A stretch of DNA of 64,000 nt from NCBI GenBank assembly GCA_035352955.1, contig DAOPYQ010000007.1:20164-84163 (forward strand). Reading direction: 5' to 3'. The notes beneath the pieces are model-generated. The model was not told the DNA's origin and made no database searches. It was given only the letters and a program-made list of their open reading frames with translations. How positions within the stretch are numbered: position 1 is the first letter of the stretch; the number at the start of each line of letters is the position of its first letter. The translations under genes and the position numbers were made by a program. This DNA comes from Candidatus Omnitrophota bacterium (GTDB taxonomy: Bacteria > Omnitrophota > Omnitrophia > Omnitrophales > Aquincolibacteriaceae). This document shows, in pieces, positions 3,201 through 53,579 of this stretch.

Positions 3201-5331
3201 CCTCGAGTTCGTGCTTACGATTTTCAAGATCCTTCTTGGACGCCGTAAGATCCTCCAGAATATTGAGAGTTCCCTCCTGAGTACGCACAAGCTCCAGAGT
3301 TCGTTCCCCCACCTTTCTTTCAAGATCCTTGGAAAACTCATCGATCTCACGGTTTGCCGCGATCAGCGCCTCTTGTTTGTCCCGAATCTGGCGAATCATT
3401 TCGCTGAAAGTGTCCGCAAATCGTTCGATCTCATCTCCGGTCCGGATCTCGATCTGTTGTTCATCCCATTGTCCGGCCTTGATCTTCTCGGCCACCAGAA
3501 CCAGCTGCCGGATCGACGAAGAAAAACGCTCCCCCGCGACAACCCCCAAGAGGACCGCCAAAAGCAAAATAATCAAAAGCAGCAGCCCCATCCCCACCGC
3601 GAGTGAATTTAACGGGGAAAAAACCTCGTCAACATCCTGAGAAACGCAAACATACCAGGCGATATTGTTTCTAAGAAGCAAAGGGTCTTCCAACCGTTTT
3701 ATCGAGGTAAAGGTCGGACGGCCAGAAAGTTCTTCTCGCCTTCTCAAAAGACCGCCCTTCCCCGCAACAACGGCCTGCATCTCTTTTTCACTGAACAATT
3801 TTGTTCCCGAAGGAGAGAGCCCCTCATGAAAAATAATATCGCCCTTTTCATTAATCAAAGCCGCATGTCCCGTCCTTCCCGTCTTATAAGATTTAAGGGC
3901 GGAAAAGAAAATGTCGATCCCTATCGCCTCCTTACCGATCCCGAGGATCTCTTGACCCTCCCGGATAGGAATCGCTACAGGAATGGTCAAGATACCGGTG
4001 GAGCGATCGATTTCAACCTCTCCTATAAAAATGCTCCCTTTGCCCCCGGCGTACGCCCTCTTCCACCATTCTTCATCGGCTTGATAATAATCACTTGTCT
4101 TGTTCGAAGCCGCCGCCACGCCGCCGTATCGGTCTGTTAAAAAAATTTCGGCCACATCAAGATCTGTATCTGCAAGGATTTTGAGCCGCAAGCTCATCGG
4201 AGTCGCAAGGCAAGTGCTAACCAGCGGATCATCGATCCCGGCAGCGATCCATGCCGCATCTTTCTTTAAAAGTTCCTGCTGGACAGCCTCGGGGGACATA
4301 GAAACATACCGCAGGTTCGCGGTCTTGACAGCCTCATGCCAAACGGGGCTGTCGATATGGATCTGCATTTCCTGGACTTTCGAATCGATCATCTTGGAAA
4401 TCGAATACCCAAGGGTTCCCGTGACCTCGATCTGTTTGGCTTCGATCGCACCGAGCAAAAGGTTGTAGATCCATCCGAAAGTAACGCCCATGGTCAAAAG
4501 CACCGCAAAACCGCTTGTTAAGCAAACTACGAGCGTGATTTTGCGACGAATTCCGCCCCGTCTTTCGATACGGTCTTCATCGGTCGGCCGAAAGTAGATC
4601 CCTGTCACCGAAAAAAAGCAACCTGCCAAAACAAGGGCACAAACCATCCTAAAAAGTTGAACGGGAAATCCGGTCCAATCAAAAAAAGCGGGATAATTCA
4701 CGAATGAAGCGAGCAGAAATCCGGCTTGGGGAACAACCAACCCGCTCAGGATCCCATAAATGAAAAAAGCTCCGGCAGTAATCCATGTTCCAAAAAGAAC
4801 CGCTGGCGGCAACATTTTCTGATTACTCCGGAACAAAACCAGCAGAAGGGCCAGCGCCGTCATCCAAGTACCCGGCACACAAAGAAAATACCGGGCGACA
4901 ATCCCGGAGATCAAGAAATCACGGGTCAAAAAAAGCGCGGCGATCCAGCCGAGGATTCCGAAAACCCAAATGTGTTTTAAAAATTTGGAATTCGGGAAAA
5001 GGACCCTGCCCCCAAAAAGAACCAAAAAAACAAACGACGCCGGGAGAAGCAACGCTCCCAGGATCTTAAGGGGCATCACGGGAAACGGCTGACTCCGCAG
5101 AATAAGAAGGTCCACCCATTCGTTCAACCCGTGCAAAAGGGCGAACAACCCCACCAGCCACAGGTCACCGGACAAATTCAGCAGGTCATTTTTTTTGGGC
5201 ATCGCAAAGATCGTGACGCCCATGATCAAAAACGCTAATCCGTAAAAGAAAAAGATGGTCTGCATCCAACTCCCTTCAAAGATCCGATACCCAACAAGGA
5301 ATGGCTCTGAATTCAGAAAAATGAAATTCAA
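205..5331 (-). CDS. Multi-sensor histidine kinase, 1708 aa. Contains a polytopic N-terminal membrane domain, an extracytoplasmic Cache-like domain, HAMP/coiled coil, about six PAS/PAC repeats, HisKA and HATPase_c.
   Basis: Multiple N-terminal TM helices; repeated PAS signatures (several ...DITERK... / ...WDITESKQAQEAL... blocks); H-box FAYVASHDLQEPLRKI; ATP-binding G-boxes (DNGIGFD ... GSGIGLSVCQKIV). No receiver domain. Confidence 0.9.
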   Translation of the reverse strand: MNFIFLNSEPFLVGYRIFEGSWMQTIFFFYGLAFLIMGVTIFAMPKKNDLLNLSGDLWLVGLFALLHGLNEWVDLLILRSQPFPVMPLKILGALLLPASFVFLVLFGGRVLFPNSKFLKHIWVFGILGWIAALFLTRDFLISGIVARYFLCVPGTWMTALALLLVLFRSNQKMLPPAVLFGTWITAGAFFIYGILSGLVVPQAGFLLASFVNYPAFFDWTGFPVQLFRMVCALVLAGCFFSVTGIYFRPTDEDRIERRGGIRRKITLVVCLTSGFAVLLTMGVTFGWIYNLLLGAIEAKQIEVTGTLGYSISKMIDSKVQEMQIHIDSPVWHEAVKTANLRYVSMSPEAVQQELLKKDAAWIAAGIDDPLVSTCLATPMSLRLKILADTDLDVAEIFLTDRYGGVAAASNKTSDYYQADEEWWKRAYAGGKGSIFIGEVEIDRSTGILTIPVAIPIREGQEILGIGKEAIGIDIFFSALKSYKTGRTGHAALINEKGDIIFHEGLSPSGTKLFSEKEMQAVVAGKGGLLRRREELSGRPTFTSIKRLEDPLLLRNNIAWYVCVSQDVDEVFSPLNSLAVGMGLLLLIILLLAVLLGVVAGERFSSSIRQLVLVAEKIKAGQWDEQQIEIRTGDEIERFADTFSEMIRQIRDKQEALIAANREIDEFSKDLERKVGERTLELVRTQEGTLNILEDLTASKKDLENRKHELEAEVLERRRVQEELRGSKARLDLALQAASMGVWHFEIAEGKRYFDDQACHILGIDPSGFQGTTEEFFNVVHPDDREMLKRLFQETFETGVLYEPEYRVLRPGGMVRHITARGKLVRDETGKPLRVNGIVWDITESKQAQEALWTSRQMMKLVLDTVPIRVFWKDWYSTYLGCNQACAADLGLNSPEEIVGKTDFDLSWNSLANHYREDDKQVMERGVAKLNYEESAVKSDGRRFWTRTNKVPLRDEQGRVTGILGTYEDITAVREAEEKIRESEERFRTLVANLPSAVYRCKNDESWTMEFLSDEIFRISGYPASDFIHNRVRSYASIIHPEDQRITSDAVQRGIFEKKPYIVEYRILRADGVARWVYEKGQPIFDPRGNLLFLDGAILDITESREAAEKIRQLSRAVEQSPAAIVITNLQGNIEYTNPKFSEVTGYSFEETLGKNPRILKSGEQSREAYEKLWATILAGKEWRGEFHNRKKNGELFWEAASISPIKDAQGRITHFIAIKEDITERKKALEELRESEERYRSYIEVTGQLGWVTSADGKVEDMPPWREFTGQKVEDVKGWGWLEAIHPEDREHTRRVWGQAVETKSPYETEYRIRRSDGVYRDFLARGVPISNADGSIREWVGTCVDITERKKIEAALGASRNFLDRIINSVGDPLFVKDRDHRWMLVNDAYCNFMGRKREELIGKTDHDFFPRSEADVFWQKDEEVFLSKGENVNEEKFTDSKGFTHTVITKKVLYVDEDRKEHIVGVIVDITGLKKIQDELLRSNKELEQFAYVASHDLQEPLRKISAFSRLLSEKDTRVLDEESKDYLERMQGAAARMSSLIDALLAYSRVATREKVLEHIPLKDVVEEVLSDLEMRVKEADAVVDVGPLPVVYADRTQMHQLFLNLIGNALKYRKKDVPVRVAVRSSALPGHFEITVEDNGIGFDEKYKDRIFAPFQRLHTREEYEGSGIGLSVCQKIVRQMGGEITARSEAGKGSVFIVTFPKV

Positions 5332-5375: not shown

Positions 5376-6851
5376 TCAGGATTTATTATTACGGGCTTCC
5401 AGCTCTGCGATCTTCGCCTTAAGCTCCTTCATTTTGAGCTCTCGATCCACGGCAACCCTTTGAAAACGTTCGAGAAAATCCACTTTCCTCTCAAGCTCCA
5501 TGCGAAGTTTTGTCATTTCACTGATATCCCGAACCGTTGCCTGCAAAATCGTTTTATTCCCCAACACCACCCGGGCGAGTAGCACCGTGGAAAAAAACTC
5601 TTCTCCGCCCACCCGTTTGTGTTTCCACTCGAAAAAATGAGCTCCTCTTTCAAGAGCCAACTTCATCATCTGCCCGGCCTTCACCGAAGAAAGTTGTCCA
5701 TCGGGCTGATATTGCGGGGAAAAATCATCGGGCCTTCGCCCAATAAAATCAGCCTCGCCGCTGCACCCAAAAAGTTTCAGCGTTGAATCGTTCCCGCTCA
5801 AAAAACCTTCCGCGGGCGAAAGGGTCATGATAGCGTCTTTGGAGGATTCGTAAAGCGCCCGAAAACTCGCTTCGCTGTTCCTGAGAAGCTTCAGGGTCCT
5901 CTCGCGAGCCAACGCCCAAAAGGTCAGAACAATGATCATCCCTGCCGCAAATCCCGTCACGACCCATCCGAGAAACCCGAAATAGGTCACCTCTTTCATA
6001 GGGACCAGAAGCACCAGCGACCAACCCGGAAGCCCAAGCGACGTGCGAAGACAAAAATGTTTTTCGCCCCGGAAACGGACCCGATCCCCTTGCCGTAACG
6101 GTCTTCCAAAAACGGGTTGGAACGAATCTCTGCCGAATTGCTTGGAATCCTTGAGTTCACGACCCCGATCCGGAGGCACCGGCCAAAGTGACTGGAAAAC
6201 CATTTCCGGGGATCCCGACATGAAAATAACGCCGTCCGGGTTGACGAAAAAAGAAGTCGGATAAGCTTTCAGGATCTGCTTCATCGCATCCACGTTGGTT
6301 TTGATCGCCACGACTCCGCGGATATAGCCCTCAGAATCCCTGACGGGATGTGCGGCATAAAAACCACGTTCGAGGCTCGTAATCCCGGTCGCTAAATAAA
6401 CCGCCGGTTTGCCGGATATTGCTTCTTGGAAATAAGGACGGAACGAATAATTTTTGCCGACAAAACTGTCCGGCATATTCCTGTTTGAGGAAACGATCAC
6501 GGCACCCTTGGAATCCAACAGGTAGCAGACAGAAAAACCGATACTATCGTTGTAGCGCGCCAAAACCGAATAAGCTTTGTCGAAATTTTCCGGATCGGGG
6601 GAGGAGAGCGCAGGAAGAATCCAAGGGGACCCCGACATGGCTGTGACCGCCGCTGAGGAAGAGTGAAATTCATTTTCCACGCCTTTGACCATCGCGGTCA
6701 ACGCGTTCTGTCCCTGGGTGGTTAAATGCTCCGTACCGATCCCTTCTAAAAAGCGAACCAGCAGAAACCCCGAAACAAGCGTCGCGCAAAAAAGCAAGGC
6801 GGGAAACGTAACGGAGAACCCATCCTTTTTGGAAAATTTTTCCGTTCTCAT
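5376..6851 (-). CDS. Membrane sensor protein with periplasmic Cache-like domain, one PAS domain and a C-terminal coiled coil; no recognisable enzymatic output domain
   Basis: Track ORF 5376-7016 trimmed to Met56 (ATG at 6849-6851) because the upstream extension overlaps the cupin gene. TM-Cache-TM-PAS layout; ends ELKAKIAELEARNNKS. Lies 45 nt upstream of the kinase gene. Confidence 0.7.
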   Translation of the reverse strand: MRTEKFSKKDGFSVTFPALLFCATLVSGFLLVRFLEGIGTEHLTTQGQNALTAMVKGVENEFHSSSAAVTAMSGSPWILPALSSPDPENFDKAYSVLARYNDSIGFSVCYLLDSKGAVIVSSNRNMPDSFVGKNYSFRPYFQEAISGKPAVYLATGITSLERGFYAAHPVRDSEGYIRGVVAIKTNVDAMKQILKAYPTSFFVNPDGVIFMSGSPEMVFQSLWPVPPDRGRELKDSKQFGRDSFQPVFGRPLRQGDRVRFRGEKHFCLRTSLGLPGWSLVLLVPMKEVTYFGFLGWVVTGFAAGMIIVLTFWALARERTLKLLRNSEASFRALYESSKDAIMTLSPAEGFLSGNDSTLKLFGCSGEADFIGRRPDDFSPQYQPDGQLSSVKAGQMMKLALERGAHFFEWKHKRVGGEEFFSTVLLARVVLGNKTILQATVRDISEMTKLRMELERKVDFLERFQRVAVDRELKMKELKAKIAELEARNNKS

Positions 6852-6954
6852 CAGTCCATCCTTACGCTTTGGGAGATTACAAAACCTCGCCCAACTGCAC
6901 GACCGGAAGCCCATTATATATCGTCCTGAAACGCTTCTTCTTCGAAATCTTTCC

Positions 6955-7317
6955 TCACCCGGAAACGACTTCATCCTCCGGGCGCCACGCCGGATCAACG
7001 ATACAGATGAAAACAAGGTCGGAAGTTCCTGTGTTTTCGATGTACTGGACAGCCTCCGGCGGAATATCGATCACATCCCCCGGCCCAACCCCGGCGGACT
7101 CCTGCCCAATATGCATCCGGCCCTTCCCTTCCAGAATGTAATAAACTTCCGAGGTTTTGAGGGCGTGGGGCTTGGTAACCTCCCCCGATTTCACGACGGC
7201 GTGAGCAAGGCTGTAACGATAGGCGCGCCCATCGGTCCGCGCGTTCAGCAGTTCGCGAAGATGGCAAGCATCCCCGGCCACGATCTCCTTACAGTCCTTT
7301 AAACGGCGAATAAACAT
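6955..7317 (-). CDS. Cupin-fold small protein (cupin_2 barrel)
   Basis: 120 aa with a G-x5-HxH...E / G...P..H-like barrel pattern (YYILEGKGRMHIGQE ... GDVIDIPPEAVQYIENTG). Confidence 0.65.
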   Translation of the reverse strand: MFIRRLKDCKEIVAGDACHLRELLNARTDGRAYRYSLAHAVVKSGEVTKPHALKTSEVYYILEGKGRMHIGQESAGVGPGDVIDIPPEAVQYIENTGTSDLVFICIVDPAWRPEDEVVSG

Positions 7318-13454: not shown

Positions 13455-13575
13455 AACTAATGGCTGGGGAACCAGGATTTGGCCCCTTCCGCTTCGCTTC
13501 AGGTAGGCCACCCGCACTTACAAACATGACATTCAGTCATGTTTTGTTCACAAGTGCTCCCCTCAAATCCTGGTG
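13455..13575. repeat. Island-terminal arm repeat (copy A). The first 18-19 nt are identical to the 3' end of tRNA-Gln; an imperfect palindrome follows.
   Basis: ctggggaaccaggatttgg at 13455-13473 equals 21533-21550 (tRNA 3' end) and 21396-21414. Downstream ...ggccacccgcacttacaaacatgacatt.agtcatgttt..acaagtgctccc.tcaaatcc.gg matches 21440-21512 at about 85-90% identity. Confidence 0.7.
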
Positions 13576-13895
13576 TTTTGGGGTGCCGTAGAGAAATTTC
13601 ATTAATTCTCACGGCAAGTTCTTGTGCATTGAGCGCAAGAGCTGCCGGATCAGGTTGAAAAGAATGGGTTATCTCTCCTCCCGGCTGATTAGAGCGGCCA
13701 TTATATTTGCCCGCATTACCCAGTACCAGCCGAATCTAGAGATACCTTCATTTCGGACATTTGACCGGACATATCAGGACAAAATGATGTCAAAAATTGC
13801 AATGCCGTACGCGGCCATCCATAAGCCGCGACGGCATAGTACTTGCGCGCTAGGCGCAAGTGTCCCTTTTGTCCTGTTTTTTGAAGGGCATTTTT

Positions 13896-13985
13896 CTGCC
13901 CTGACTTTTATTTTTTTTGGGTAGATGGTAGTCAGGACTGCCTCAATTTCCGCTTCGCGAAAATTGATAGAGATTGGGACTGCAA
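13896..13985. repeat. ~90-bp hairpin-containing repeat, intergenic copy
   Basis: ctgccctgact-(T-rich loop)-agtcaggactgcctcaatttccgcttcgc.aaattgatagagattgggactgcaa; about 80% identical to 19706-19795, which lies inside the giant CDS. Confidence 0.6.
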
Positions 13986-14090
13986 CTTATCCGCCGAAGG
14001 ACGGATCCGTCCATGTTTGTGGCGGATTCTTGCTGAATTAGATACAAAATGTCCGAGCCCAAGGGGGTGGACATTTTTAAAAATCTGCGC

Positions 14091-14115
14091 ATTCTGGGAC
14101 ATATTGTCCCAGAAT
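14091..14115 (-). terminator. Putative rho-independent terminator of the giant gene
   Basis: Perfect 11-bp stem attctgggaca/tgtcccagaat with a 3-nt loop, 14 nt past the stop at 14129. On the minus strand it is followed by GCGCAGATTTTTAAAAAT. Confidence 0.5.
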
Positions 14116-14128
14116 GGTGTAGCAGAAA

Positions 14129-17100
14129 TTATGCAGCTTTTTGAGTTTCAGATTGAGCGAGGTAAGCTTGTTCGATATCACGGAGAAGGGCATTGCCCAT
14201 AATCGTAATGAGCCGCCCATCCTTTTTGAAAGCTTGTTCGGAAACAGGATAACCGGTTTCTTGCAAGGCCCGGATCAGCTCGGCCTTAAGATCGATGGTT
14301 TCACCGGCCCCTTTCTTCTCTTTGGCAATGATAGCCACCTTAATCAGGATCGCAGCGAACAGCGCCTGGATCGCAAATTGAGTGTCCGCATCCATGTTCA
14401 TCCCCTCAGCGTTAAAGAAAAGCCCCTGGAACATTTCGTTAAGAGCGTTTGCATCCGCCGCGCTCCCAGCATCCAGAGCCATCGGAATGGCGCTTTGCCC
14501 ATCGGAAGCCGTTACGGCAATTCCGCCACGAATTTCTTTCGGGCTTAAAGGTCTTAGATTGAAAACCTCTCGCATGGCACCGCTCACTTTTTGTGCCAGC
14601 ACTTTGCCGGTATCACGATCTGAAAAGATTTCAGCTTGAAGCCCGTTTTCCAGAACAACCTTGAAAAGCTCCTCATAAAAAGACGCTAGACCAGGACCCT
14701 GGTCCTTAGAAAAATTGAGAGCGAGGGTAATCTGGGACGTGACAGGCATAGCCCCCTCGGCCCGCACGCGGCCGAACTTGAGAATCTTGGCCACACAATC
14801 CAATACCGCAGTGAGCCTCGTTCCTCCCGCCAGAGCAACTTCCTGAGTCACCGCTCTCTTAGCCAACTCCATCCCCACAACCTGTATGGCAGATCTAATC
14901 AAAGCATCAAGCTCACCTCGAACAACCACATATTCAATATGTTGCGCTTCTTCCGGGCCGAAACGCTGTGGGCTCACAGGATTCAACGCTTCCGCAACCC
15001 ATCCGCCCATTACCTCAGTAGACGTTTCATCCGTTACACGTTGTTCAGAGCGTGTAATAATAAATTCTGAAGGAAGCCGTGAGACAATAGAGGAAAATTC
15101 CGGCATTTTTTTATTTAAAACTTCGGTCACGATCTTTTTATAATCCGCAGGTTCGGTGAACTCTTCCGGCTTGAGGTCCAGTCCGGCATATTGGTTTACA
15201 AATTGAATAAATCGGCGTGCGATTTCAGGATTGATTCTCTCAAGGCCTTCTTTCGTCAGATCCTTATAAATAGAATCCCCGAGGCTGTCCTCTAACCGAT
15301 TTTGGAAATCAAAAACAAGATCGATTGCTTTTAAATAGGCCCTGATCCGTCCCCACGCCTCTCCGGAAAATCGCTGAGCCACCGCGTTGGGAATCGCATT
15401 CAATGACTCATCCAACTTGCGCCTATCACCCCGCATTACATAAAGGTTCTGACCACCACCGGGACTTCCGTTGAATGACTTAATAAGAAGTTCCATTTCG
15501 TAGATAAGTTTTCCGAGGGGGTAATCGTTTGTTCGGGCCGACCATGGAATATCCATATTTGAGGCAAGCGTTCTTAATTGAGCCTCAGTCCCGGCAAGAT
15601 GTGCCTTGTCCATGAGGTCCAATCCTTTGACTTCATCTAACCAAGTCGTCCCGTTAAAAGGATCCGTTATATTATTAGTGATCGTCATGGGAGTAAAACC
15701 ATGATCCAGAATCGATCGCTCCACAGCTTCCTGAGCGCCAAGATTTTCATCGAAATATGCAATTTGAATCTTTTTCTGGTCCAGCCATTGCCGCATCGCC
15801 TCGGGAATTTCCGCAAGCTTCCCTCGTCTGATGAGTATCCATGAGCCCTCAGGCAATTCAAAAGGTCCAACGTGCGACGTTGCAGTATGCCAAAGGTTGG
15901 CAAAGCCCTGCTTCGACGCCTCAGAAAAGGGGCTCATGAAAATTACATCAGCCGAATTGAGCATGGCGATGACACCGTTCAATGAAAACTCTACGATATT
16001 TCGAGGCAAACTCTCAAGAGGATGTTCCCCCTCAAAATAAGAATTAGGATAAAGTGCAATCCTTTTTCCATCCCAGACAAGACCTTGGGCGGCATGAACC
16101 AAAACCATGCCTTCGGGTCGCAAAGCACCGTCAGGACCGATCAGGGGTTGAGGTTTCCCACGTTCATCCTGCTCCTGCTGATAGAGAAGCTTCTGTTTCA
16201 GCTGGTGGACCTGATCTAGAACCCCAGATATTTTCTGAAGGCTCGAATCTCTTTCACCCGCAAAGGGATCCTCATTCGACAGCTTTGCTAATTTCGAAAA
16301 ACCCTCGGCTTCCAGGTTTACGGAGGGAAACCAGGCGCCTTTTTCAAAATTTCCTCCCCACAAGCCATTTCCGTCGACAAACTTTGCAGCTGCTGAAAAG
16401 AGCCCAGCGAGCTTGATGCAGGTTGAAGCTGAAATTCCAGAATTTTGAGAAAGCTGTGCGATCTTTTCAGCTCCCCAATCATCGGAACTTCGGATATAAC
16501 GGTTTTCTTCCTGGCTCCAAGGCAACTCGATAGGAGCATTCAAATAACTGGAAATAGCCAACGCTGTATCTGTTTCTCGTCGCGTGAATCCTAAATCCGT
16601 CATTACCCGCTCGATCACTTCTTTCATGAGTCGGTCCCGGTAATCGTAAAATCTTTCATTTTCACCCCTTTCAGGAACGGGGACACCCGCCTTTAAGAGC
16701 AAGTCGATCAAAGATCGATCGTCTTTACTGAACCAGGCATTTGCAGTAACAGTTTGCATATCCTGCAAAACTGCAAGGATCCGAATCACGGCTGCGATCC
16801 TGATTCCTGGCACCGCAGGAATTCCGTAAGATCGGAGCAATGGTTCAAGAATTCTAAAATAGCGCCTTTTTGCATCTATTAAATTGATATCGTGCCAGCG
16901 CACAAGCCTTCCGGCAGTGTTCACGTCATCCCGCGCCAAATGCCGGGTAAAGATCTTTTCTAGGTCCGGGTAATGCCGAAGAAAAAATTGGACGGGATCT
17001 CCTTCACCAGCTTCGAGAAAAGCGCTATCGTTTTCGGCGAACGCCACTGTAGGGGAAAGCTCAGGGTCAAGATACTGACGGGCCCTGTTCAAGAAAGCTT

Positions 17101-20100
17101 CAATCTCTCGAACCCGTTGCAGATCCTGAATCCCCGGGATTTCCAGGGCCAACTTATCTATAACCGCGATCAATTCGCCCCTTTCCATGGAGCTAAGCCT
17201 TGGCACCCCCCCAAGATCCACCCGCGCTTCGGAGCGGCCGGCTTGACCTATATTTCCGAGCAATTTTAAAATCTCAGGGCTTTTCACAAGCGCAGGCGGA
17301 TACTGGTTCTCTCCGATTTTTTCCGCTGGCAAGGAAGACAAAATATGGGATTGCCCGGTTCGCCCGATAAACAACTCCACCTCTTTATCCTGCACCCCTC
17401 TTTTAAACCGCCATTGTTCTCCACCCACAGCGATATCAAATTCCTTGTCTCCTGTTACAGCCCTTTTAGAAAAGTCATTGCTCAAGCGCTCAAAGAGCCT
17501 ATCAACAAGGGTAAGCGGTTTCTGTTTCATGCTCGGAATCCTTTCCGCTATTGTTATTGGCAAAATCCAATCGGTAGAAGGATTCGATATATTTTTATCT
17601 CCTTGTACTTTCTCAAAGCTCTGATGCTTTTTTCTGATTAAAATAAAATGATTAAATTCTCCATTGGAAGACCTATGAAAATAGAGCGTTCCCGCATCGG
17701 TCATGTTTCTACCCAACATTCGGCTTAGATCCTGAGTCTGAACCGCGGTTGAACTTTGGGCCGGCTTTAGCCCTTGAGGCTTCTCACCCAGAAGCATCCA
17801 TACATTACTCTTTTGAGGATCAAACATCTTGGTCTCCTGGGTGTGTCCTAACAATCCAATGGCCTTCTCAGAGATCATTTTTGAAACAACCTTTTGATCT
17901 CCCGACCATGACAACTCACTCGGCACGAGAACATGAACATGATAAAACCCGGACATAGTGCCAATTTCTTGATTTTGTTCATAACCGTTATCAACCGCAA
18001 AGGCTATCATTTTTTGAAGTGCATCAAGAAAGTGAGCTGGTATTTCTTCGGAAAAAAAATTGCGTTCATTATCTTTCATATACATGGCACGATAGGCATC
18101 CCAGGTTATCCATGCCGTCGCTGGCTGTTCCAAAGATTCAGCTCCAGATTCTTCGCGGTTTTCGGAACGGGTTTCGGGGCGTTTGTTCGCTGGAGTTCCA
18201 GAATCTGGCGCAGGAGAAACCTCCTCCCGAGTAAGTTGCCAACCATACCGTGCCGATTCCTTGCCATAATTCGACCTATCGATAAAAGCACCCTGCGGAG
18301 TTACCCTCATTCCGTCTATAATTTCGCCTTCCTCATTCAGCCTTCGATGAAACTGCGCGATAACGCCTGGAACTCTGGCCTGCACTCCTCTTTCCTCTTC
18401 CTCCGGACTACGTGAGTAAGAATCATCTCTATAATCAATTATGTACTCGATGTCCGACGCACGAAATCCTTTCCCCAACAACCTATTGTGGATGGCCTGT
18501 ACATGATCAGCAAGCGAACGGCCCTTGTCTTTCCAACGTATATAAATGTGGCCAAGCCCGTAATGAGCGGCGTAATTAGCAGAAGCGCGAATGTTGATGG
18601 CAACACCAGTGCAAGCAGAAAGATTGCGTGTCACCAAGCTAACGTTTGGATAAGTGTCAGAATCAAACACGGCCAGATCGCCCGTATTTATAAAAAAATC
18701 TTCACCTTCTTTTTCTATAGGCATAACACTATCGGTTGCATCGCCGTTCCAAACGAAAACGCCTCCTTCTCCATTTTTAACGTATTTAGCAGAGGATTGC
18801 ACTTTTTTACCCGTAACAGCATTCTTAATCATTTTCAAAGAGTTCATGAGCCAAGGCAGGAGTCTGATTTCTGTCCGCCCATCAGGTGCAAGTTGATTAG
18901 CTAAAGAAACTTCAGGGATAGTAATAGTTCTGATGAGCTGGAGGATGCTGGATTCGCTAAGGTTGCCTTCAGCCTGGAGTTGTTTGAGGCCTTCGCCGAA
19001 GCGGTCGATGTTGGCGAGCCATCGCTCTTTTAGATTTGAAGTTTGGAGCCGGGAGTTCGAAGAAAGCTCATCGATGAAATGGGTGTAGTTGCCGGCTTCA
19101 GTAACTCGTCCCTCAGAAGCAAGATCGCGGATGATTTGGTCACGCCATTCTTTTCCGACGATAGCGGAAGCATTTTTATCTCCAAGAAGCTTATCTCTTG
19201 CGGCTCTTACAAAAGCATCGTAAAGATTAACTTTACCGTTTTTGACTTCGAAATAATTGCTCCAGGAGACCTGCCCCTGCATGTGTTCGCGGTAAAGCGG
19301 CTCTTCGGGAATGGAACCGATTGAAGGCATAACGAGAACATAAGAGATCCCCTTTTCTTTCAACTCCCGTGTAAGCCCTTCGGTGTGGAAACCTCCGGCA
19401 ACGAGCAGAGAGCTCTCTTGTTTTGCTTTTTCCATCATAGACTGAATATTCTCGCGGAACACTTTATCGCGCTTCTCCGCAATACGATAAAAAGCTAGTT
19501 GCGGTTCCATCTTCTTGAGAAGCGCAGTGACTTCCTCCCAGCTGACAATCCGGTCCTGCGTTACGGTCCACTGATCCAGTTGAAGCATCATCTTCTGGAC
19601 CTTTCCCCAATCCTCAAAGCTGAGTTCGAGACGAGCGAGGCGTTTGATCAAATCGAGGCCTTTGCTTTTTTGATCGAGCACGCGCATTGCGTTGACGCGG
19701 TCGTTCTGCCCCGACTCTTGTTTTTCTTTGATGGACGGTAGTCGGGGCTGCCCCAATTTCTGCTCTGCTTCAATTGATGATGATAGGGACTGGAAAAGCG
19801 ATTCCTTGACCGAATCAGCGTAACGCTTAAAGTCCTCGAAAAGTCGCGTGCCTTCAATGTCTTTTAACCGTTTTTGATGCTCCGTTAAGTAAGCCAACTT
19901 GCGGGAGACCTTGACGCGAACCCCGTATTTTTTAGCCAGTCCCTTAAGATAGAGTGCAAAAGCCTGCGGAGTGACCTGCGCGATCCTAAATTCCTGATAT
20001 TTTTGGTTAAAAATGCGCAGGTCATCCCGAGCGGAGTCGAGGGATCTTTCTTTAAGAACGGCTTCGACTTTTTGAGCGATCTTTTTGATCTCGATCTCGA

Positions 20101-20950
20101 CAGGCGTATCCGTCATTTGGCCCTTGTCCCCATTGGACAAGGACGGCTTCGGCGAGAACTTGTTGTTCTCGTCCGAACCGCTCAGTTTTATTTCTTCAAG
20201 CAATACCGCGAGTTCGGAACCTTTGGGTGGCAGCTGATATTCAGCAAGTTTATTCAGAATCTGCACAAGGTCTGTTTTATTCTCGCCAAAATCCGCCAAC
20301 AGCCGATCGATCTCAAACATCTCTTTGGAATAGACGAATCCTTTTTCCTTGTTCAGAGCGGCCGCCATCGGATCAAGCAGTGCCTTGATCTCAGGTTCCA
20401 TCTTCATCGCCTGAAGATAATAGGAAACGCCTTCTTCATAGAGCGACCAATCCTCAATGCCCTGATAGGTGCCGGGGGATGCATTGAACAGTGCTGCCGC
20501 CGTGCCGCCGGTGAGTTCGCCCCTTCCTGCGTAAGCATCGAAGGTTTTGCGAAGCAGTTCCTTATCTGGGAAACTCTTGAATATCTGCGGGTCCAGTTTT
20601 TCGGATGCCCCTTCGAGGCCGACCAATGAAACTCCGTATTGGGTCTGGAAATGATCAATGGCGGACCGAATACTGTGCTGGGCATCGGGAATCGAGTGGG
20701 CATCCTGGATCAGCACCACAACCTCATCACCCGACCCGCGGTAGGTCTCTTGAATCTTCCCGATCTCTTTAGGTATTGCGATTGCCGTAAGATCATTCGT
20801 GAGCGATCGAAAACTTACAGCAGGTGTTGGACTAATTTCAGCACTCGCTTGCGGCAAGTAACCCGAAGTCACAAAAAACGCTGCGCACACGAATAGAGCT
20901 ATTCCTTTTCTCAGCATTGGCCTTGGTGACTTTTTGTAAATCTTTATCAT
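14129..20950 (-). CDS. Giant (2273 aa) secreted protein of unknown function; N-terminal signal peptide, no domain I can assign
   Basis: Uninterrupted 6.8-kb ORF. N-terminus MIKIYKKSPRPMLRKGIALFVCAAFFVTSGYLPQASA/EIS (SPase I type). Non-repetitive sequence with no catalytic motif I recognise. Coding region is visibly AT-richer than its flanks. Confidence 0.8.
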   Translation of the reverse strand: MIKIYKKSPRPMLRKGIALFVCAAFFVTSGYLPQASAEISPTPAVSFRSLTNDLTAIAIPKEIGKIQETYRGSGDEVVVLIQDAHSIPDAQHSIRSAIDHFQTQYGVSLVGLEGASEKLDPQIFKSFPDKELLRKTFDAYAGRGELTGGTAAALFNASPGTYQGIEDWSLYEEGVSYYLQAMKMEPEIKALLDPMAAALNKEKGFVYSKEMFEIDRLLADFGENKTDLVQILNKLAEYQLPPKGSELAVLLEEIKLSGSDENNKFSPKPSLSNGDKGQMTDTPVEIEIKKIAQKVEAVLKERSLDSARDDLRIFNQKYQEFRIAQVTPQAFALYLKGLAKKYGVRVKVSRKLAYLTEHQKRLKDIEGTRLFEDFKRYADSVKESLFQSLSSSIEAEQKLGQPRLPSIKEKQESGQNDRVNAMRVLDQKSKGLDLIKRLARLELSFEDWGKVQKMMLQLDQWTVTQDRIVSWEEVTALLKKMEPQLAFYRIAEKRDKVFRENIQSMMEKAKQESSLLVAGGFHTEGLTRELKEKGISYVLVMPSIGSIPEEPLYREHMQGQVSWSNYFEVKNGKVNLYDAFVRAARDKLLGDKNASAIVGKEWRDQIIRDLASEGRVTEAGNYTHFIDELSSNSRLQTSNLKERWLANIDRFGEGLKQLQAEGNLSESSILQLIRTITIPEVSLANQLAPDGRTEIRLLPWLMNSLKMIKNAVTGKKVQSSAKYVKNGEGGVFVWNGDATDSVMPIEKEGEDFFINTGDLAVFDSDTYPNVSLVTRNLSACTGVAINIRASANYAAHYGLGHIYIRWKDKGRSLADHVQAIHNRLLGKGFRASDIEYIIDYRDDSYSRSPEEEERGVQARVPGVIAQFHRRLNEEGEIIDGMRVTPQGAFIDRSNYGKESARYGWQLTREEVSPAPDSGTPANKRPETRSENREESGAESLEQPATAWITWDAYRAMYMKDNERNFFSEEIPAHFLDALQKMIAFAVDNGYEQNQEIGTMSGFYHVHVLVPSELSWSGDQKVVSKMISEKAIGLLGHTQETKMFDPQKSNVWMLLGEKPQGLKPAQSSTAVQTQDLSRMLGRNMTDAGTLYFHRSSNGEFNHFILIRKKHQSFEKVQGDKNISNPSTDWILPITIAERIPSMKQKPLTLVDRLFERLSNDFSKRAVTGDKEFDIAVGGEQWRFKRGVQDKEVELFIGRTGQSHILSSLPAEKIGENQYPPALVKSPEILKLLGNIGQAGRSEARVDLGGVPRLSSMERGELIAVIDKLALEIPGIQDLQRVREIEAFLNRARQYLDPELSPTVAFAENDSAFLEAGEGDPVQFFLRHYPDLEKIFTRHLARDDVNTAGRLVRWHDINLIDAKRRYFRILEPLLRSYGIPAVPGIRIAAVIRILAVLQDMQTVTANAWFSKDDRSLIDLLLKAGVPVPERGENERFYDYRDRLMKEVIERVMTDLGFTRRETDTALAISSYLNAPIELPWSQEENRYIRSSDDWGAEKIAQLSQNSGISASTCIKLAGLFSAAAKFVDGNGLWGGNFEKGAWFPSVNLEAEGFSKLAKLSNEDPFAGERDSSLQKISGVLDQVHQLKQKLLYQQEQDERGKPQPLIGPDGALRPEGMVLVHAAQGLVWDGKRIALYPNSYFEGEHPLESLPRNIVEFSLNGVIAMLNSADVIFMSPFSEASKQGFANLWHTATSHVGPFELPEGSWILIRRGKLAEIPEAMRQWLDQKKIQIAYFDENLGAQEAVERSILDHGFTPMTITNNITDPFNGTTWLDEVKGLDLMDKAHLAGTEAQLRTLASNMDIPWSARTNDYPLGKLIYEMELLIKSFNGSPGGGQNLYVMRGDRRKLDESLNAIPNAVAQRFSGEAWGRIRAYLKAIDLVFDFQNRLEDSLGDSIYKDLTKEGLERINPEIARRFIQFVNQYAGLDLKPEEFTEPADYKKIVTEVLNKKMPEFSSIVSRLPSEFIITRSEQRVTDETSTEVMGGWVAEALNPVSPQRFGPEEAQHIEYVVVRGELDALIRSAIQVVGMELAKRAVTQEVALAGGTRLTAVLDCVAKILKFGRVRAEGAMPVTSQITLALNFSKDQGPGLASFYEELFKVVLENGLQAEIFSDRDTGKVLAQKVSGAMREVFNLRPLSPKEIRGGIAVTASDGQSAIPMALDAGSAADANALNEMFQGLFFNAEGMNMDADTQFAIQALFAAILIKVAIIAKEKKGAGETIDLKAELIRALQETGYPVSEQAFKKDGRLITIMGNALLRDIEQAYLAQSETQKAA
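19706..19795. repeat. ~90-bp hairpin-containing repeat, in-frame copy inside the giant CDS
   Basis: Perfect 9-bp inverted repeat gccccgact (19708-19716) / agtcggggc (19740-19748), then ctgccccaatttctgctctgc.tcaattgatgatgatagggactggaa. It encodes ...EAEQKLGQPRLPSIKEKQESGQNDRV... of the giant protein. Confidence 0.6.
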
Positions 20951-21395
20951 CTGTAAGTTTCCTTGGTCATAGCACTTCTAATTAGAATATAACCTGTTAT
21001 TTATAAAAAAGGTCTATTTGCTATATAAAGATAGTATTTACTATTAATAGTATTCTGAAAACTCCATTTTCTTTGGGAAACTCAGCTCGACACTATTAAC
21101 TTGCTATATCTCCGTTTCTAAAACATGTATGTTTCAGGAGGCCGGACACGGCAGGAATGAACAATATTGGATAACAAATTGAGACGTTGAAAACGATGGG
21201 GACAGCGGAGTTGCTGTTTCGATAAAGAGAGGCTTTCGAGACCAAGCCGGCACCAGAAACCGAACCTTCCTAATTCGGCAATAGGCCTACAAAATTCAGG
21301 GATTGGTAAATGGAAAAGTGTTTTTACGGACTTTGAAATAGCTCGGAGCTATAGGAGGAGATGCTTTGACAGCCGTGCAGAAGAACTGGGGAACC

Positions 21396-21532
21396 AGGAT
21401 TTGGCGCCTCCGCTCGCCTCGTGCAACGAGGCAAGCTACGGTCGGCCACCCGCACTTACAAACATGACATTAATTCATGTTTGTGAACAAGTGCTCCCTT
21501 CAAATCCCGGGAACCCATCAATGTAAAGAAAC
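21396..21532. repeat. Second direct copy of the tRNA-Gln 3' 18-19 nt (att-like) plus the 119-bp arm element between it and the intact tRNA
   Basis: 21396-21414 ctggggaaccaggatttgg; 21415-21532 holds the imperfect palindrome cacttacaaacatgacattaattcatgtttgtgaacaagtg, similar to copy A. Confidence 0.7.
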
Positions 21533-21603
21533 CTGGGGAACCAGGATTTGAACCTAGACTAGGTGATCCAGAGTCACCTGTGCTACCGTTACACCATTCC
21601 CCA
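21533..21603 (-). tRNA. tRNA-Gln (anticodon CTG)
   Basis: Minus-strand TGGGGAATGGTGTAACGGTAGCACAGGTGACTCTGGATCACCTAGTCTAGGTTCAAATCCTGGTTCCCCAG. It has a 7-bp acceptor stem with U1-A72, G73 discriminator, anticodon loop CUCUGGA, and T-loop GGTTCAAATCC. CCA is not encoded. Confidence 0.8.
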
Positions 21604-21816
21604 ACGTATCAAGCAGAGCAAATTTAATTGCGGCAACGGGATCTTGAAGTCCCGCTTGCGGCGTCGCGCAGTCCCGGCTGACTTGTGACCGGGGCACTAT
21701 TCCCCAATAAATCAACGATTGAATTATAGCCGATAACCTCAAAAAGAGGAGGGATTATAGCGGGACTTTCTGTTTCGCGCAATGTCTGCCGCAGAACAAT
21801 CCCGAGACTCTCGGAA

Positions 21817-32680: not shown

Positions 32681-32749
32681 GGAAAAGAAACCGTGCCTCG
32701 ATCTCACGGGATGACCGGCCATTCGCTTCTTCCGCTATATAAAAAACTT

Positions 32750-32823
32750 TGCCCCTAGCATGAATCGAACATGCAACCCTCTCCTTAGGAAGGAGATGCT
32801 CTATCCAATTGAGCTATAGGGGC
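32750..32823 (-). tRNA. tRNA-Arg (anticodon CCT)
   Basis: Minus-strand GCCCCTATAGCTCAATTGGATAGAGCATCTCCTTCCTAAGGAGAGGGTTGCATGTTCGATTCATGCTAGGGGCA forms a cloverleaf with anticodon loop UUCCUAA and T-loop TTCGATT. Confidence 0.8.
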
Positions 32824-33065
32824 ATTGAAACCCAATGTTTTAATACGACACCGTCGAGGCTCGATGTTTTAGATCGTCCCTATGGGATCTGGGAGGCCTC
32901 GTACGCTAACCGCCTATTTCCCGATAAATCTATAAAGATACGGAAGAAAACAGGGAGAATGATAGCAGATTCCCCCATGGCTGTCTCTATACAAACCCGC
33001 CAAAATTAGGCATAGTGACGGTCACCTGCATGCCAAGGATGCGCTACCTCACCCGATGCGTCAGG

Positions 33066-33602
33066 TTACCCTTCCCCGCCGGACGGCATCCGGTATCCGG
33101 GTATCTCCGGCATCTGTAGATTGCCAGCGTATCTATAGGATTCTAAGCAAAAGCGGCGCAATGAATCACTGCCTTTTGCATAGAAAAGAACCCAATCGTC
33201 CCCATATTCATTCACATCATAAGTACCACCAGCAGATAAGTCCATTTTTAGGTGGCCGATAGAATTGATGGCAACAGCTTTCTCAGTCTGCGGCAACCTC
33301 AAGGCAAAAGATATATTTGTAGCCTGAAAACCAAAAATAACTCCATTTTTGGGTCTCACTAAAACCGCGCGGCCACGAACAATCCACCTGCAATCTTCCG
33401 GCAAATCTTTTGTTATTTCATTCCAAAAGATTCTTACAACTTCCGCATGCATTCCAAGCTTTAGTTCTACTTGGTCTATCGAGGCAGGGTCACATTCATC
33501 TTTCGTTTGAAAATTATAAGCGGGCTTAATAAATGGACCATGTTTTGATAAATATTTTTGGTTAGCCGGATGTGAAAAATTCACTTTGGACATTTGCACC
33601 AC
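33066..33602 (-). CDS. Hypothetical protein (178 aa) in the AT-rich island
   Basis: ORF with no recognisable motif; AT-rich codon usage unlike the core genes. Confidence 0.4.
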   Translation of the reverse strand: MVQMSKVNFSHPANQKYLSKHGPFIKPAYNFQTKDECDPASIDQVELKLGMHAEVVRIFWNEITKDLPEDCRWIVRGRAVLVRPKNGVIFGFQATNISFALRLPQTEKAVAINSIGHLKMDLSAGGTYDVNEYGDDWVLFYAKGSDSLRRFCLESYRYAGNLQMPEIPGYRMPSGGEG

Positions 33603-33632
33603 TCTACAAAGCTACTTTAATCGGGTCGGGGA

Positions 33633-33995
33633 TCATTTCGTATACTCTTCTTCAAGAATTTTTCCCGTATTAATATCTATTCGATACCTAGATTGCCTGC
33701 CACCAGCCCAAAGGTTACCCTCTTTATCAAATCCAACTCCCCCAAACTGATCAGGAATCCTGACCTTGTGTCCAACTCTCCACATGTCTGGGTCTTCAAC
33801 CTTCCAAATTTGCTTTCCATCTTGATTAAGGCAAATAATCCCTTCGTCGGGCACCTCGTCTCCCATCAATTCAAAGCGAACAATAATTTGCGTTTCGGTG
33901 GTTACAATATTCCCAATGGGATGTTTGAAATCCATAGTCTTCGTTCGGGTACCGTTCTCGATCGTAAGAAGAGACCCTTTGAAGCTGACATTCAT
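33633..33995 (-). CDS. Hypothetical small protein (120 aa)
   Basis: Start moved to the internal ATG (33993-33995), which is preceded by AGGAGG and removes the overlap with the upstream membrane-protein gene. Confidence 0.4.
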   Translation of the reverse strand: MNVSFKGSLLTIENGTRTKTMDFKHPIGNIVTTETQIIVRFELMGDEVPDEGIICLNQDGKQIWKVEDPDMWRVGHKVRIPDQFGGVGFDKEGNLWAGGRQSRYRIDINTGKILEEEYTK

Positions 33996-34015
33996 CCCCA
34001 CAATCCCCTCCTTTT

Positions 34016-34501
34016 TTATAAGTTTCTGCAGCGGAAGTCCCCAATATTCCCCTGCTCTGATTTGAACTTTTCCCTTACCTGCGGAAGAGAAAGATACCAA
34101 ATAAAAATGGCGGGTAACGGGATGTGAAATGACCAAAAGCAAAAAAGCATGCTGGCAGATGCGTCCCAACCTATTTTATAAGCAACGGTGGCAAACCAAA
34201 TTGACCATCCAAGCATGTAGACTGTCACGGCTACGAGCAAAAACACGTAGATCGCCCTCGCTAAATTTCTCATCTTGTAAATTCCGAACAAAAGAACCGC
34301 ACTGATAATTCCTGCCAGCTCACCCATGACAATCTCTATCCAAATAAGCCGTTCGTATTTTAAAAGTTCAAATTTTACAAGCTCGTATACTGGCACCCCA
34401 ATAAACGAGTATGCGGTAGTTAAAACCATTACCACAAACATCCAAATAAATCCTTTGGGTTTTTCGGCTTTTGCTAAGCTATTTTTTTCTTTTATTTCCA
34501 A
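34016..34501 (-). CDS. Small integral membrane protein (about 4 TM helices)
   Basis: Four hydrophobic helices (FIWMFVVMVLTTAYSFIGV..., LAGIISAVLLFGIY..., IYVFLLVAVTVYMLGWSIWFATV..., MLFCFWSFHIPLPAIFIWYL). Confidence 0.5.
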   Translation of the reverse strand: MEIKEKNSLAKAEKPKGFIWMFVVMVLTTAYSFIGVPVYELVKFELLKYERLIWIEIVMGELAGIISAVLLFGIYKMRNLARAIYVFLLVAVTVYMLGWSIWFATVAYKIGWDASASMLFCFWSFHIPLPAIFIWYLSLPQVREKFKSEQGNIGDFRCRNL

Positions 34502-34599
34502 AGCCCCCTCCTGTTCTCCCGCGCTTCCTTCTGCGATACAAGAAACCTCCCGTTGGGCTTGCCCTTAATCGAGCCGGAGATCATTTTCGTAACCAACTC

Positions 34600-35538
34600 T
34601 TATTGGCTTTCGTTTCTTTCTCCCTCAAGCCTTACCTCCTGAACTTCACAATAACCTGGCCGACTTTCAAATCCAGGGCGAGACTTTCCCGTAACAAAAT
34701 CGGTAACAACCGGATATTGCATAGTTTCCGAATAATCGATTTTCTCCGCTTCCCGTGAAATGCATTGGACCTCGATCCTTTTATTTTCGAATTTCTTCAA
34801 CCTTTCCTCTGAAACCACTTTGGACGGACGCAATATCACCCTGTCTTTCGGATCTTCTGTTTTCAGCACAAAATCCAGCCCCAAAAATGATTCCACGGAT
34901 TTTGTTTGCGGATGAAATTCCAACTCTCCGACAAACGTCTTAACATCCGAGTTCTGCACAGCGCGTGTTTTTTGAACTTCCGTCGAAACAGTATCCCACG
35001 ATCCTCTTTTAGCTTCTCTCGCTTCCTTCTGCAATTTAAGTAACAGCTCGGCATACTTCACATTCGGCGCGGCTGGAACGGCCTGCCCCGCCGTGGTTAC
35101 AAGCGGGGTCATGACTTGGGCGTAGCCGGACTTGATGAGGGTGGCGTTGAGAAAGATGCAGGCAGTGATGCTTCCATCAGGATCTTGCATATCAAGATAT
35201 TCGTACTTGGGATTTCTTCGTGTATCGCAGTTATTGCATACCACAACATAAACATATGCCAAGAGCCGTTTGTATTTGTCCCTCTGTTGCACATCATAAT
35301 CGAGCCTGACCTGTTTTCCTTCCGCAAGTTGGCGGGTAAACTCCGCCGCTTTCTTGCCCTGTTCAGGATCTTCGGGTGGCTGGATGCCGATCAGGGAAAC
35401 TGTTTGGCCGTCCGAAAGTTCGAGCGTCGTCGCGTCGATGACTTTGGTGACCGTGAGAGAGGTATCGGCAGCCCGGCAAGGCGCGGCAAGAAATGAAACA
35501 GCGAGAAGCGTCAGCAGGATCAGCTTCCTCATAGGCAA
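34600..35538 (-). CDS. Secreted two-domain protein: signal peptide, thermonuclease (SNase)-like domain, and a ~150-aa C-terminal domain of unknown function
   Basis: Signal peptide MPMRKLILLTLLAVSFLAAPCRA. Residues ~30-190 match the SNase fold (VTKVIDATTLELSDGQTVSLIGIQPPE ... LNATLIKSGYAQV ... EAREAKRGSW). Confidence 0.55.
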   Translation of the reverse strand: MPMRKLILLTLLAVSFLAAPCRAADTSLTVTKVIDATTLELSDGQTVSLIGIQPPEDPEQGKKAAEFTRQLAEGKQVRLDYDVQQRDKYKRLLAYVYVVVCNNCDTRRNPKYEYLDMQDPDGSITACIFLNATLIKSGYAQVMTPLVTTAGQAVPAAPNVKYAELLLKLQKEAREAKRGSWDTVSTEVQKTRAVQNSDVKTFVGELEFHPQTKSVESFLGLDFVLKTEDPKDRVILRPSKVVSEERLKKFENKRIEVQCISREAEKIDYSETMQYPVVTDFVTGKSRPGFESRPGYCEVQEVRLEGERNESQ

Positions 35539-53402: not shown

Positions 53403-53579
53403 TTTTTTTAACCTTTATTTATATAGCAATACATAACATTAATATATTACTATATAGTTCCTTACCACTATCAAAAAAATAGCATAGCATTAGCTAAAAG
53501 TCAAACCTAACAAATTAATATTTTTATCTATCTAAGTCATTTAAAACAAACGACTTGGAGAAAATTTTAGGAGGGCTAT

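Follow-up and report, generated by a model that had tools for sequence, protein, structure and literature searches.

A modular Omnitrophota protein family with Sec-type signals, a TIKI-like head, RSExR linkers and shuffled cargo

Bacteria of the phylum Omnitrophota are abundant, for the most part uncultured and apparently dependent on hosts, and a host-dependent or predatory way of life has been reported for them (PMC10066038). Long exported proteins have also been reported from the phylum (bioRxiv 10.1101/2023.11.21.568195; bioRxiv 10.64898/2026.06.07.730766). Such proteins are believed to mediate attack on other cells, or attachment to them, and have been called poorly conserved and mostly unannotated. 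A second group of relevance here is the TIKI/EreA/ChaN/TraB-PrgY superfamily, to which the Tiki Wnt proteases, the erythromycin esterases, HopBA1 and the RRSP effector of the MARTX toxins belong; the catalytic set of the superfamily, in the numbering of RRSP, consists of E3900, H3902, E3930 and H4030, and R4001 is also essential (PMC6254334). Here we describe a gene at 14129..20950 (minus strand) of a 64-kb window, that is, the whole stretch of 64,000 nucleotides (nt) analysed on contig DAOPYQ010000007.1 of a Candidatus Omnitrophota bacterium (GCA_035352955.1). The gene encodes 2273 amino acids (aa) and belongs to a large family, restricted to Omnitrophota, of modular proteins with Sec-type signals, whose architecture comprises a signal peptide layout, a head with an invariant site, short linkers at the module borders, shuffled cargo and a conserved tail. 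The fuller reading, in which this is a Sec-exported family of multi-effector polyproteins that are maybe self-cut at their linkers, and in which the present copy was recently acquired on an 8-kb cassette, stands evenly balanced in our judgement.

Head, linkers, cargo and tail of the family

The gene is a single uninterrupted open reading frame (ORF) with an ATG start, and its product is identical to NCBI entries HNX69053.1/HPS37024.1, which are labelled "hypothetical protein" in two Candidatus Omnitrophota bacterium metagenome-assembled genomes (MAGs). The JGI gene call begins at M12, the second in-frame start, and gives an otherwise identical product of 2262 aa. In addition to the two NCBI MAG records, the same ORF was found on several independent contigs, and the neighbouring genes for GlnRS, GluRS and DXS likewise carry Omnitrophota names. 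A protein search returned 103 homologues, nearly all of 1.3-4 kaa (1331-3969 aa), from Omnitrophota and some Elusimicrobiota MAGs, where they are named hypothetical or after one cargo domain; a BLAST map of these homologues showed conservation to be confined to aa 12-700 and aa 1965-2273. When one genome per GTDB species was scanned, at least 572 loci were found to encode a relative of the N-terminal module (N-module), almost all of them labelled Omnitrophota. Many family ORFs in these genomes exceed 4000 aa, and several genomes have five or more family copies among the matches listed; our window holds one. In one Omnitrophota MAG no fewer than five genes of the family were found (L011, L012, L014, L017 and L029), of which L011 and L012 are adjacent on JBAYGD010000007.1. 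The family occurs in sets of paralogues, perhaps also in arrays.

Searches of the whole protein against Pfam (E<=1), NCBIfam and PHROGs returned no family, PADLOC returned a single insignificant match to Csm2 (E 0.007), and nothing better than E 0.4 was found among PDB sequences. The family profiles of the N-module, of the cargo modules M1, M2 and M3 and of the C-terminal module (C-module) found no real match among PDB sequences either. An earlier note on this DNA had described the product of an intact 6.8-kb ORF as a non-repetitive, exported orphan with a signal peptidase I (SPase-I) signal peptide, no recognisable domains and no placeable catalytic motif. The ORF proved intact, with no sign of a fusion of frameshifted genes; self-BLAST of the 2273-aa protein gave the identity match alone, so that the sequence is indeed free of internal repeats; and no confident full-length homology to a characterised family was found. 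The orphan status did not survive the 103 homologues of the protein search and the 572 or more loci of the GTDB species scan. The absence of recognisable domains holds for the Pfam, NCBIfam, PHROGs and PDB-sequence searches, none of which gave a significant match, and fails at the level of fold, where structure prediction placed the N-module (M3 was left without a decisive structural match). The N-module has a TIKI/EreA/ChaN fold and an invariant acid-x-His...Glu...Arg...His set, against the claim that no catalytic motif could be placed. The view of the protein as atypical has to be qualified, because long multi-enzyme proteins with signal peptides are already a described Omnitrophota trait (bioRxiv 10.1101/2023.11.21.568195; bioRxiv 10.64898/2026.06.07.730766). 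An undescribed exported effector-like family is a reasonable reading, and no description of the family was found in the searchable literature.

The head of the protein, the N-module (aa 38-~690; 18881..20839, minus strand), is a TIKI/EreA/ChaN/TraB-fold domain with a helical insertion of ~340 aa (aa 168-508). An AlphaFold model built from a 36-sequence alignment (predicted local distance difference test, pLDDT, 81; predicted template-modelling score, pTM, 0.72) has the alpha/beta fold of the superfamily, with a parallel beta-sheet core flanked by helices, and its fold-level matches each align over ~155 residues. Invariant columns in the 67- and 36-homologue alignments are D83, H85, Q91, E113, F487, R494, G519, G520, H522 and P542, and H85, E113 and H522 each directly follow a predicted beta strand in the model. 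The query and RRSP have in common the residue order acid-x-His, Glu, Arg, His. The spacing from His to Glu is 28 in the query as in RRSP and in Bcr135, the His-Glu pair of which is H85/E113 (PMC6254334), and the spacing from Arg to the second His is 28 in the query and 29 in RRSP; the first acid of the query is an Asp (D83), where the superfamily has Glu. The N-module matched none of the curated superfamily profiles (Pfam TraB_PrgY_gumN, Erythro_esteras and Cofac_haem_bdg; E<=1), and its family profile found no TIKI-fold protein among PDB sequences. Judging from the model and these residues, the N-module is probably a divergent but catalytically complete TIKI-fold domain, and a hydrolase-like activity is predicted for it.

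The linker motif was first noticed at the start of aligned C-modules, and the pentapeptide was then recognised elsewhere in the query. Across the 103 homologues we counted 275 instances of the pattern [RK]SE.R, where shuffled sequences give 12.3 +/- 3.6. An unbiased scan of 4-of-5 patterns, which left out the first 700 aa of each protein, ranked RSE.R far above all others (z 116), with 186 instances where 2.5 were expected, in 51/59 proteins. The logo reads R-S-E-[LVAM]-R, with small residues ahead of it and no conservation further out, and the median spacing of the motif in the family is 353 aa. Three sites are present in the query (all on the minus strand): RSENR (aa 928-932; 18155..18169), in a P/S/E-rich spacer between M1 and M2; RSEAR (aa 1239-1243; 17222..17236), at the border of M2 and M3; and RSEQR (aa 1967-1971; 15038..15052), at the border of M3 and the C-module, a place where almost every homologue has the motif as well, as the start of its C-module. 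Module borders had been defined independently by homology, and the sites at 928, 1239 and 1967 lie exactly on them. A variant with Thr for Ser, RTEIR (aa 691-695; 18866..18880, minus strand), lies at the end of the N-module and is of uncertain status, being off the position of the first RSExR in homologues. None of ~16 Pfam domain regions in nine homologues spans an RSExR site, and several are tightly bracketed by two of them, such as a protein kinase (959-1179) between sites at 933 and 1247. The codons for RSExR differ between the query sites, which shows that the constraint lies on the peptide; a DNA-level recombination joint was considered and is ruled out for the same reason. The linkers are found in the sub-clade that holds the query, and distant family members do not have the motif. 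No account of an RSExR linker or of Omnitrophota polyproteins was found in the searchable literature.

Between the head and the tail lies the cargo. An exhaustive phmmer search with aa 740-1939 against 1.84 billion representative proteins returned 35 relatives, which fall into three separate groups corresponding to M1, M2 and M3. A word-index protein search gave nothing with the central 1264 aa and a single fragment with the profile of the C-module, which we take for a limit of the index and not for an absence of relatives, since the collection contains identical proteins. M1 (aa ~725-912; 18215..18778, minus strand) has invariant Cys780 and His801 (ACTG...YGLGH). M2 (core aa ~960-1106; 17633..18073, minus strand; module to aa 1238) has an invariant GF.H.H ... 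H.QE ... D set, a His cluster that looks like a metal site. M3 (aa 1244-1966, with homology over ~1249-1950; 15053..17221, minus strand) consists of a helical part, an alpha/beta core and another helical part, and its AlphaFold model reaches pLDDT 84 and pTM 0.82. The core of M3 (aa ~1590-1830, ~230 aa; 15461-16183) has invariant P1635, N1636, P1649, R1650, E1654, F1655, N1658 and G1695. M3 weakly resembles a class II tRNA nucleotidyltransferase, but we do not take this for its function, as no Foldseek match reached E 0.001 and no G[SG]...DxD was seen in the core; the other Foldseek matches were mostly helical noise. On reading the sequence, M1 brought CheD/CNF1 (Cys...His) to mind and the M3 core an ADP-ribosyltransferase, impressions without support on which nothing is built here. 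The relatives of M1, M2 and M3 are hypothetical proteins of Omnitrophota and Elusimicrobiota, including short ones of ~200-800 aa as recorded, and ten short homologues of the three modules returned no Pfam family. Four homologues (P0105, P0112, P0120 and P0122) have the same N-module at their own N-terminus and M1 or M3 at other positions, indicating that cargo is shuffled within the family. The cargo of other homologues includes Ser/Thr kinase, SNF2 helicase, RelA/SpoT, PPDK, HAD, MBL, FHA and histidine phosphatase domains, and PPDK_N, HATPase_c, NUDIX, methyltransferase, HAD, GT5 and HEAT domains were found as well.

Both ends of the protein are conserved in layout. The putative signal peptide, as read from the sequence (aa 1-37, MIKIYKKSPRPMLRKGIALFVCAAFFVTSGYLPQASA / EIS; 20840..20950, minus strand), has a K/R-rich n-region, a 17-residue hydrophobic core and a type I site, A-S-A, preceding E38; the N-terminal model shows a helix over residues 10-30 followed by a disordered stretch over 32-44. 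No lipobox was found in the N-terminus (V is at position -1 of Cys22), nor a twin arginine. A hydrophobic segment lies within the first 70 aa in 86/100 family proteins that start with M, and a small-x-small site follows it in 81/100, while the actual residues vary; the SPase-I signal peptide of the earlier note is thus borne out from its layout. Beyond the signal peptide there are only two short hydrophobic stretches, which are helices inside folded modules, and no membrane anchor. The C-module (aa 1972-2273; 14132..15037, minus strand) is a family-conserved domain of ~300 aa that ends in ...ETQKAA-COOH. A search with an iterated hidden Markov model (HMM) placed it precisely at the C-terminal end in 26 or more homologues, and it always closes the protein; few of its residues are invariant. 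The last residues of complete members are [KRQ]-[AS]-A-COOH (P0002-P0042; L005-L066), also in proteins so diverged that the C-module HMM fails to find the domain, and the most distant family members end in S-L. The [AS]A tail recalls the C-terminal Ala-Ala recognised by tail-specific proteases or adaptors.

The low-GC segment beside tRNA-Gln

The gene sits between the genes for GlnRS and tRNA-Gln on one side and a metallophosphoesterase gene on the other. The guanine-plus-cytosine (GC) content of 13464-21531 is 47.5% (a second value for this copy is 47.9%), against 53.6% elsewhere in the window. The family genes are not of low GC in general, because at 34 other loci the gene and the DNA around it agree in GC; taken together, these values make the present copy look recently acquired. 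The gene for tRNA-Gln (CTG; 21532..21604, minus strand) is located upstream, and its 3' 17-18 nt are present in three copies, at 21532, 21386 and 13464, so that each border of the segment carries a repeat of it. The upstream border is formed by R1 (21386..21510, minus strand), a structured element of ~125 nt directly 3' of tRNA-Gln that ends in the copy of the tRNA-Gln 3' end, and the downstream border by R2 (13464..13573, minus strand), the same element 3' of the giant gene with the same ending. Two terminator-like hairpins follow the stop codon directly (14046..14126, minus strand), the first with a 12-bp stem plus an outer stem, then U5; the folding energy is -37.9 kcal/mol (z -7.7), and a strict consensus terminator scan did not call them. 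The horizontally acquired island and the terminator hairpin claimed by the earlier note thus both hold, the former on GC content and on direct repeats ending in the tRNA-Gln 3' end at both borders, the latter on two strong hairpins, though the consensus scan was negative. No integrase or recombinase was found inside the 8-kb segment, which contains the giant ORF and a 100-aa ORF without a Pfam match. A tRNA directly adjoins the gene in ~6/79 family loci.

R is a conserved, strongly folding element of ~110 nt with the invariant core ...ACAAACATGA-loop-TGTCATGTTTGTAAGTGCGGGTGGCCGACC..., and it matched no Rfam family. Four more copies were found in metagenomes, in L081 (~1860-2020), L082 (~545-690), L083 (~3355-3515) and L084 (~100-270). 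Three of them directly follow a tRNA (Thr, Val and Gly), and the 3'-end copy that closes each of them is that of the particular tRNA it follows; the L084 locus has no predicted tRNA gene, and the 3'-end sequence is present in it twice. All six R copies end in a copy of the 3' 17-19 nt of a tRNA, and in four of the six the copied end belongs to a tRNA gene (Gln, Thr, Val and Gly) that lies immediately 5' of the element. In its behaviour R is like a miniature insertion with tRNA 3' ends as its target. In one homologue locus (P0008, on an ENA contig of 94.7 kb), the family gene is directly followed by a gene for a 636-aa large serine recombinase (Resolvase, Recombinase and Zn_ribbon_recom), which is a possible mobilising enzyme for such cassettes.

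Elsewhere in the window, a second low-GC patch (32749-35538; 43.5-44% at 33-35 kb) adjoins a tRNA-Arg gene (32749-32824, minus strand). Encoded in the patch are a pair of neighbouring 178-aa ORFs without a Pfam match and a 312-aa protein with a staphylococcal nuclease domain, and the patch may be another tRNA-linked insertion. A third GC dip (44.9%) at 53001-54000 surrounds ORFs 52608-53402 and 53580-54341 (minus strand). The segment 205-5331 (minus strand) encodes a 1708-aa sensor histidine kinase with dCache, four PAS, HisKA and HATPase_c domains, unrelated to the giant gene, and a 546-aa dCache protein is encoded upstream of this kinase (5376-7016, minus strand).

Processed effectors or a surface scaffold

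In the reading that we set out above, the protein would be exported by Sec and its signal peptide cleaved, and the exported chain, a multi-effector polyprotein, would be directed against a partner or prey cell or act at its surface. The RSExR linkers would serve as processing sites, and the TIKI-like head would be the most likely protease to cut its own linkers, as in self-processing multi-effector toxins; the present copy would have arrived recently on an integrase-less 8-kb cassette that inserted beside tRNA-Gln. The cargo enzymes need cytoplasmic cofactors, which, together with a Sec signal and a host-dependent lifestyle, fits effectors inside another cell. Stated most specifically, the family would be a new type of self-processing polyprotein, in which the head of a Sec-exported carrier cuts RSExR, shuffled enzymes are released onto or into the host or prey of episymbiotic Omnitrophota, and copies move as integrase-less cassettes bounded by the ~110-nt element that targets tRNA 3' ends. 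We put this specific version forward tentatively, as a possibility that may well prove wrong. Several points weigh against the polyprotein reading. We infer every step of it, from Sec export and removal of the signal peptide to action on a partner cell, cutting at RSExR and the head as a protease, and the proposed equivalence of the active-site residues draws on their order, spacing and invariance. The TIKI superfamily also holds esterases (Ere), a haem binder (ChaN) and inactive domains (PMT C1/C2) (PMC6254334), so that the fold alone is no proof of peptidase activity. Distant family members keep the catalytic residues yet have no RSExR, which indicates a role of the head that is independent of the motif, and the query itself has no canonical RSExR between the N-module and M1, where only RTEIR at 691 is found. 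In addition, no neighbour is conserved within 10 kb on either side of 79 family loci, where secretion-system, immunity and protease genes were all looked for, and thus no secretion or translocation apparatus is conserved beside the gene.

These points lead to the main alternative, an unprocessed periplasmic or surface scaffold that would be a small version of the multi-enzyme giants of Omnitrophota, with RSExR as a structural or docking linker and a head that acts on an external substrate, be it as an esterase, as a peptidase on foreign proteins or as a binder of haem or another ligand. It has in its favour that the long multi-enzyme proteins of Omnitrophota, which have signal peptides, are assigned in the preprints to the membrane or the cell surface (bioRxiv 10.64898/2026.06.07.730766; bioRxiv 10.1101/2023.11.21.568195), that the head occurs without RSExR in distant members, that TIKI-fold proteins include non-proteases, and that the conserved C-module with its KAA tail would stay attached to an uncut chain and could anchor or dock it. 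It accounts less well for a five-residue motif that is under strong selection as protein and lies in A/S/P/E-rich spacers right between autonomous modules, as is typical of a recognition or cleavage site, for the lack of a membrane anchor beyond the signal peptide, and for ATP-, phosphoenolpyruvate- and nucleoside triphosphate-dependent cargo with no obvious use in the periplasm. We rate the scaffold as a serious candidate that is still rather unlikely to be the answer. The cargo domains of the homologues are of cytoplasmic type, and the signal peptide call is a reading of the sequence; a cytoplasmic multidomain enzyme, whose N-terminal hydrophobic helix is not an export signal, is nevertheless improbable, because the n-h-c layout and the small-x-small site are conserved in 81-86 of 100 members despite residue variation and because positive charges N-terminal to the hydrophobic core would orient the rest of the chain outwards. 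Enzymes of the TIKI/TraB/PrgY type, moreover, commonly work outside the cytoplasm. A true orphan toxin, the sole representative of its kind with neither relatives nor a placeable motif, might be suggested by the empty Pfam, NCBIfam, PHROGs and PDB-sequence searches, by the insignificance of the PADLOC match and by a central 1260 aa with only ~35 weak relatives among 1.84 billion representative proteins; the homologues and genomic loci, together with the placeable fold and invariant catalytic set of the N-module, already refute it, and we give it almost no credence. An artefact made of fused frameshifted genes, or a decaying pseudogene, is the least probable of all and is likewise already refuted: no supporting point was found, and against it stand the recurrence of the ORF on independent contigs and in two MAG records, the order of head, cargo and tail that is the norm across the family, and pLDDT values of 81-84 for both modelled parts.

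Comparison with described systems

The N-module shares its fold and the order of its catalytic set with the TIKI/EreA/ChaN/TraB-PrgY superfamily, from which it differs in having no profile match, an Asp instead of a Glu as first acid and a fold split by the ~340-aa helical insertion. Domains of the superfamily stand alone or are one effector among others, whereas the N-module heads a modular protein of 1.3 to >4 kaa. The giants of Omnitrophota ("Archaeovorins" and the "multi-enzyme metabolic cluster"; bioRxiv 10.1101/2023.11.21.568195; bioRxiv 10.64898/2026.06.07.730766) come from the same phylum and likewise combine a signal peptide with a succession of many enzyme domains unrelated to one another, and their N-terminal regions are described as having no identifiable domains (bioRxiv 10.1101/2023.11.21.568195), as is the case here. 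They reach 10-147 kaa, whereas our protein has 2273 aa and the family mostly 1.3-4 kaa. HEAT, GT and dockerin domains are missing from the query, as are rows of transmembrane helices, although some homologues carry HEAT or GT5. A TIKI-like head, an RSExR linker or a KAA tail finds no mention for the giants in the available text of either preprint. Long exported modular proteins of Omnitrophota are therefore already known, while the head, the linker grammar and the tail of this family were not found described in the searchable literature.

A carrier with swappable modules, a short junction motif, several paralogues per genome and a link to mobile DNA is also found in polymorphic toxins (Rhs, CdiA and MafB). 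Unlike these, the query has no RHS/YD or FHA repeats, and there are many junctions per protein and not one; in contrast to systems with PxxxxDPxGL or VENN motifs, no neighbour, an immunity gene included, is conserved in the 79 loci, and RSExR is not conserved at the DNA level. Type V autotransporters differ as well, as no autotransporter Pfam match was found and as the protein ends in ...ETQKAA, and its homologues in [KRQ][AS]A, and not in an aromatic residue. The 8-kb segment has the direct repeats of a tRNA 3' end and the foreign composition of tRNA-targeting integrative islands, and differs from them in carrying no integrase inside the element.

The family resembles the MARTX toxins in its conserved N- and C-terminal regions around shuffled effector modules, and the MARTX effector RRSP has a TIKI fold. 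Moreover, MARTX toxins release their modules by a protease domain in the same polypeptide, as the processing proposed here would do. The query has neither glycine-rich A/B/C repeats, judging from self-BLAST, nor a Pfam match to an RTX-type family or to Peptidase_C80, the inositol-hexakisphosphate-activated cysteine protease domain of these toxins, and it has an N-terminal Sec-type signal instead of type I secretion. The proposed protease would be the TIKI-like head and the proposed site RSExR, whereas MARTX toxins are cut at Leu-X, and homology is limited to the fold of one domain. The locus leads to hundreds of genes that follow a simple grammar of signal peptide, TIKI-like head, cargo separated by a pentapeptide and Ala-Ala tail. 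This grammar provides sequence rules for dividing the family proteins into functional units and supplies a catalogue of candidate effector domains, several of them new folds or new families. If the proposed processing is true, the family would represent a second, independent way to deliver many effectors on one polypeptide, beside the MARTX toxins.

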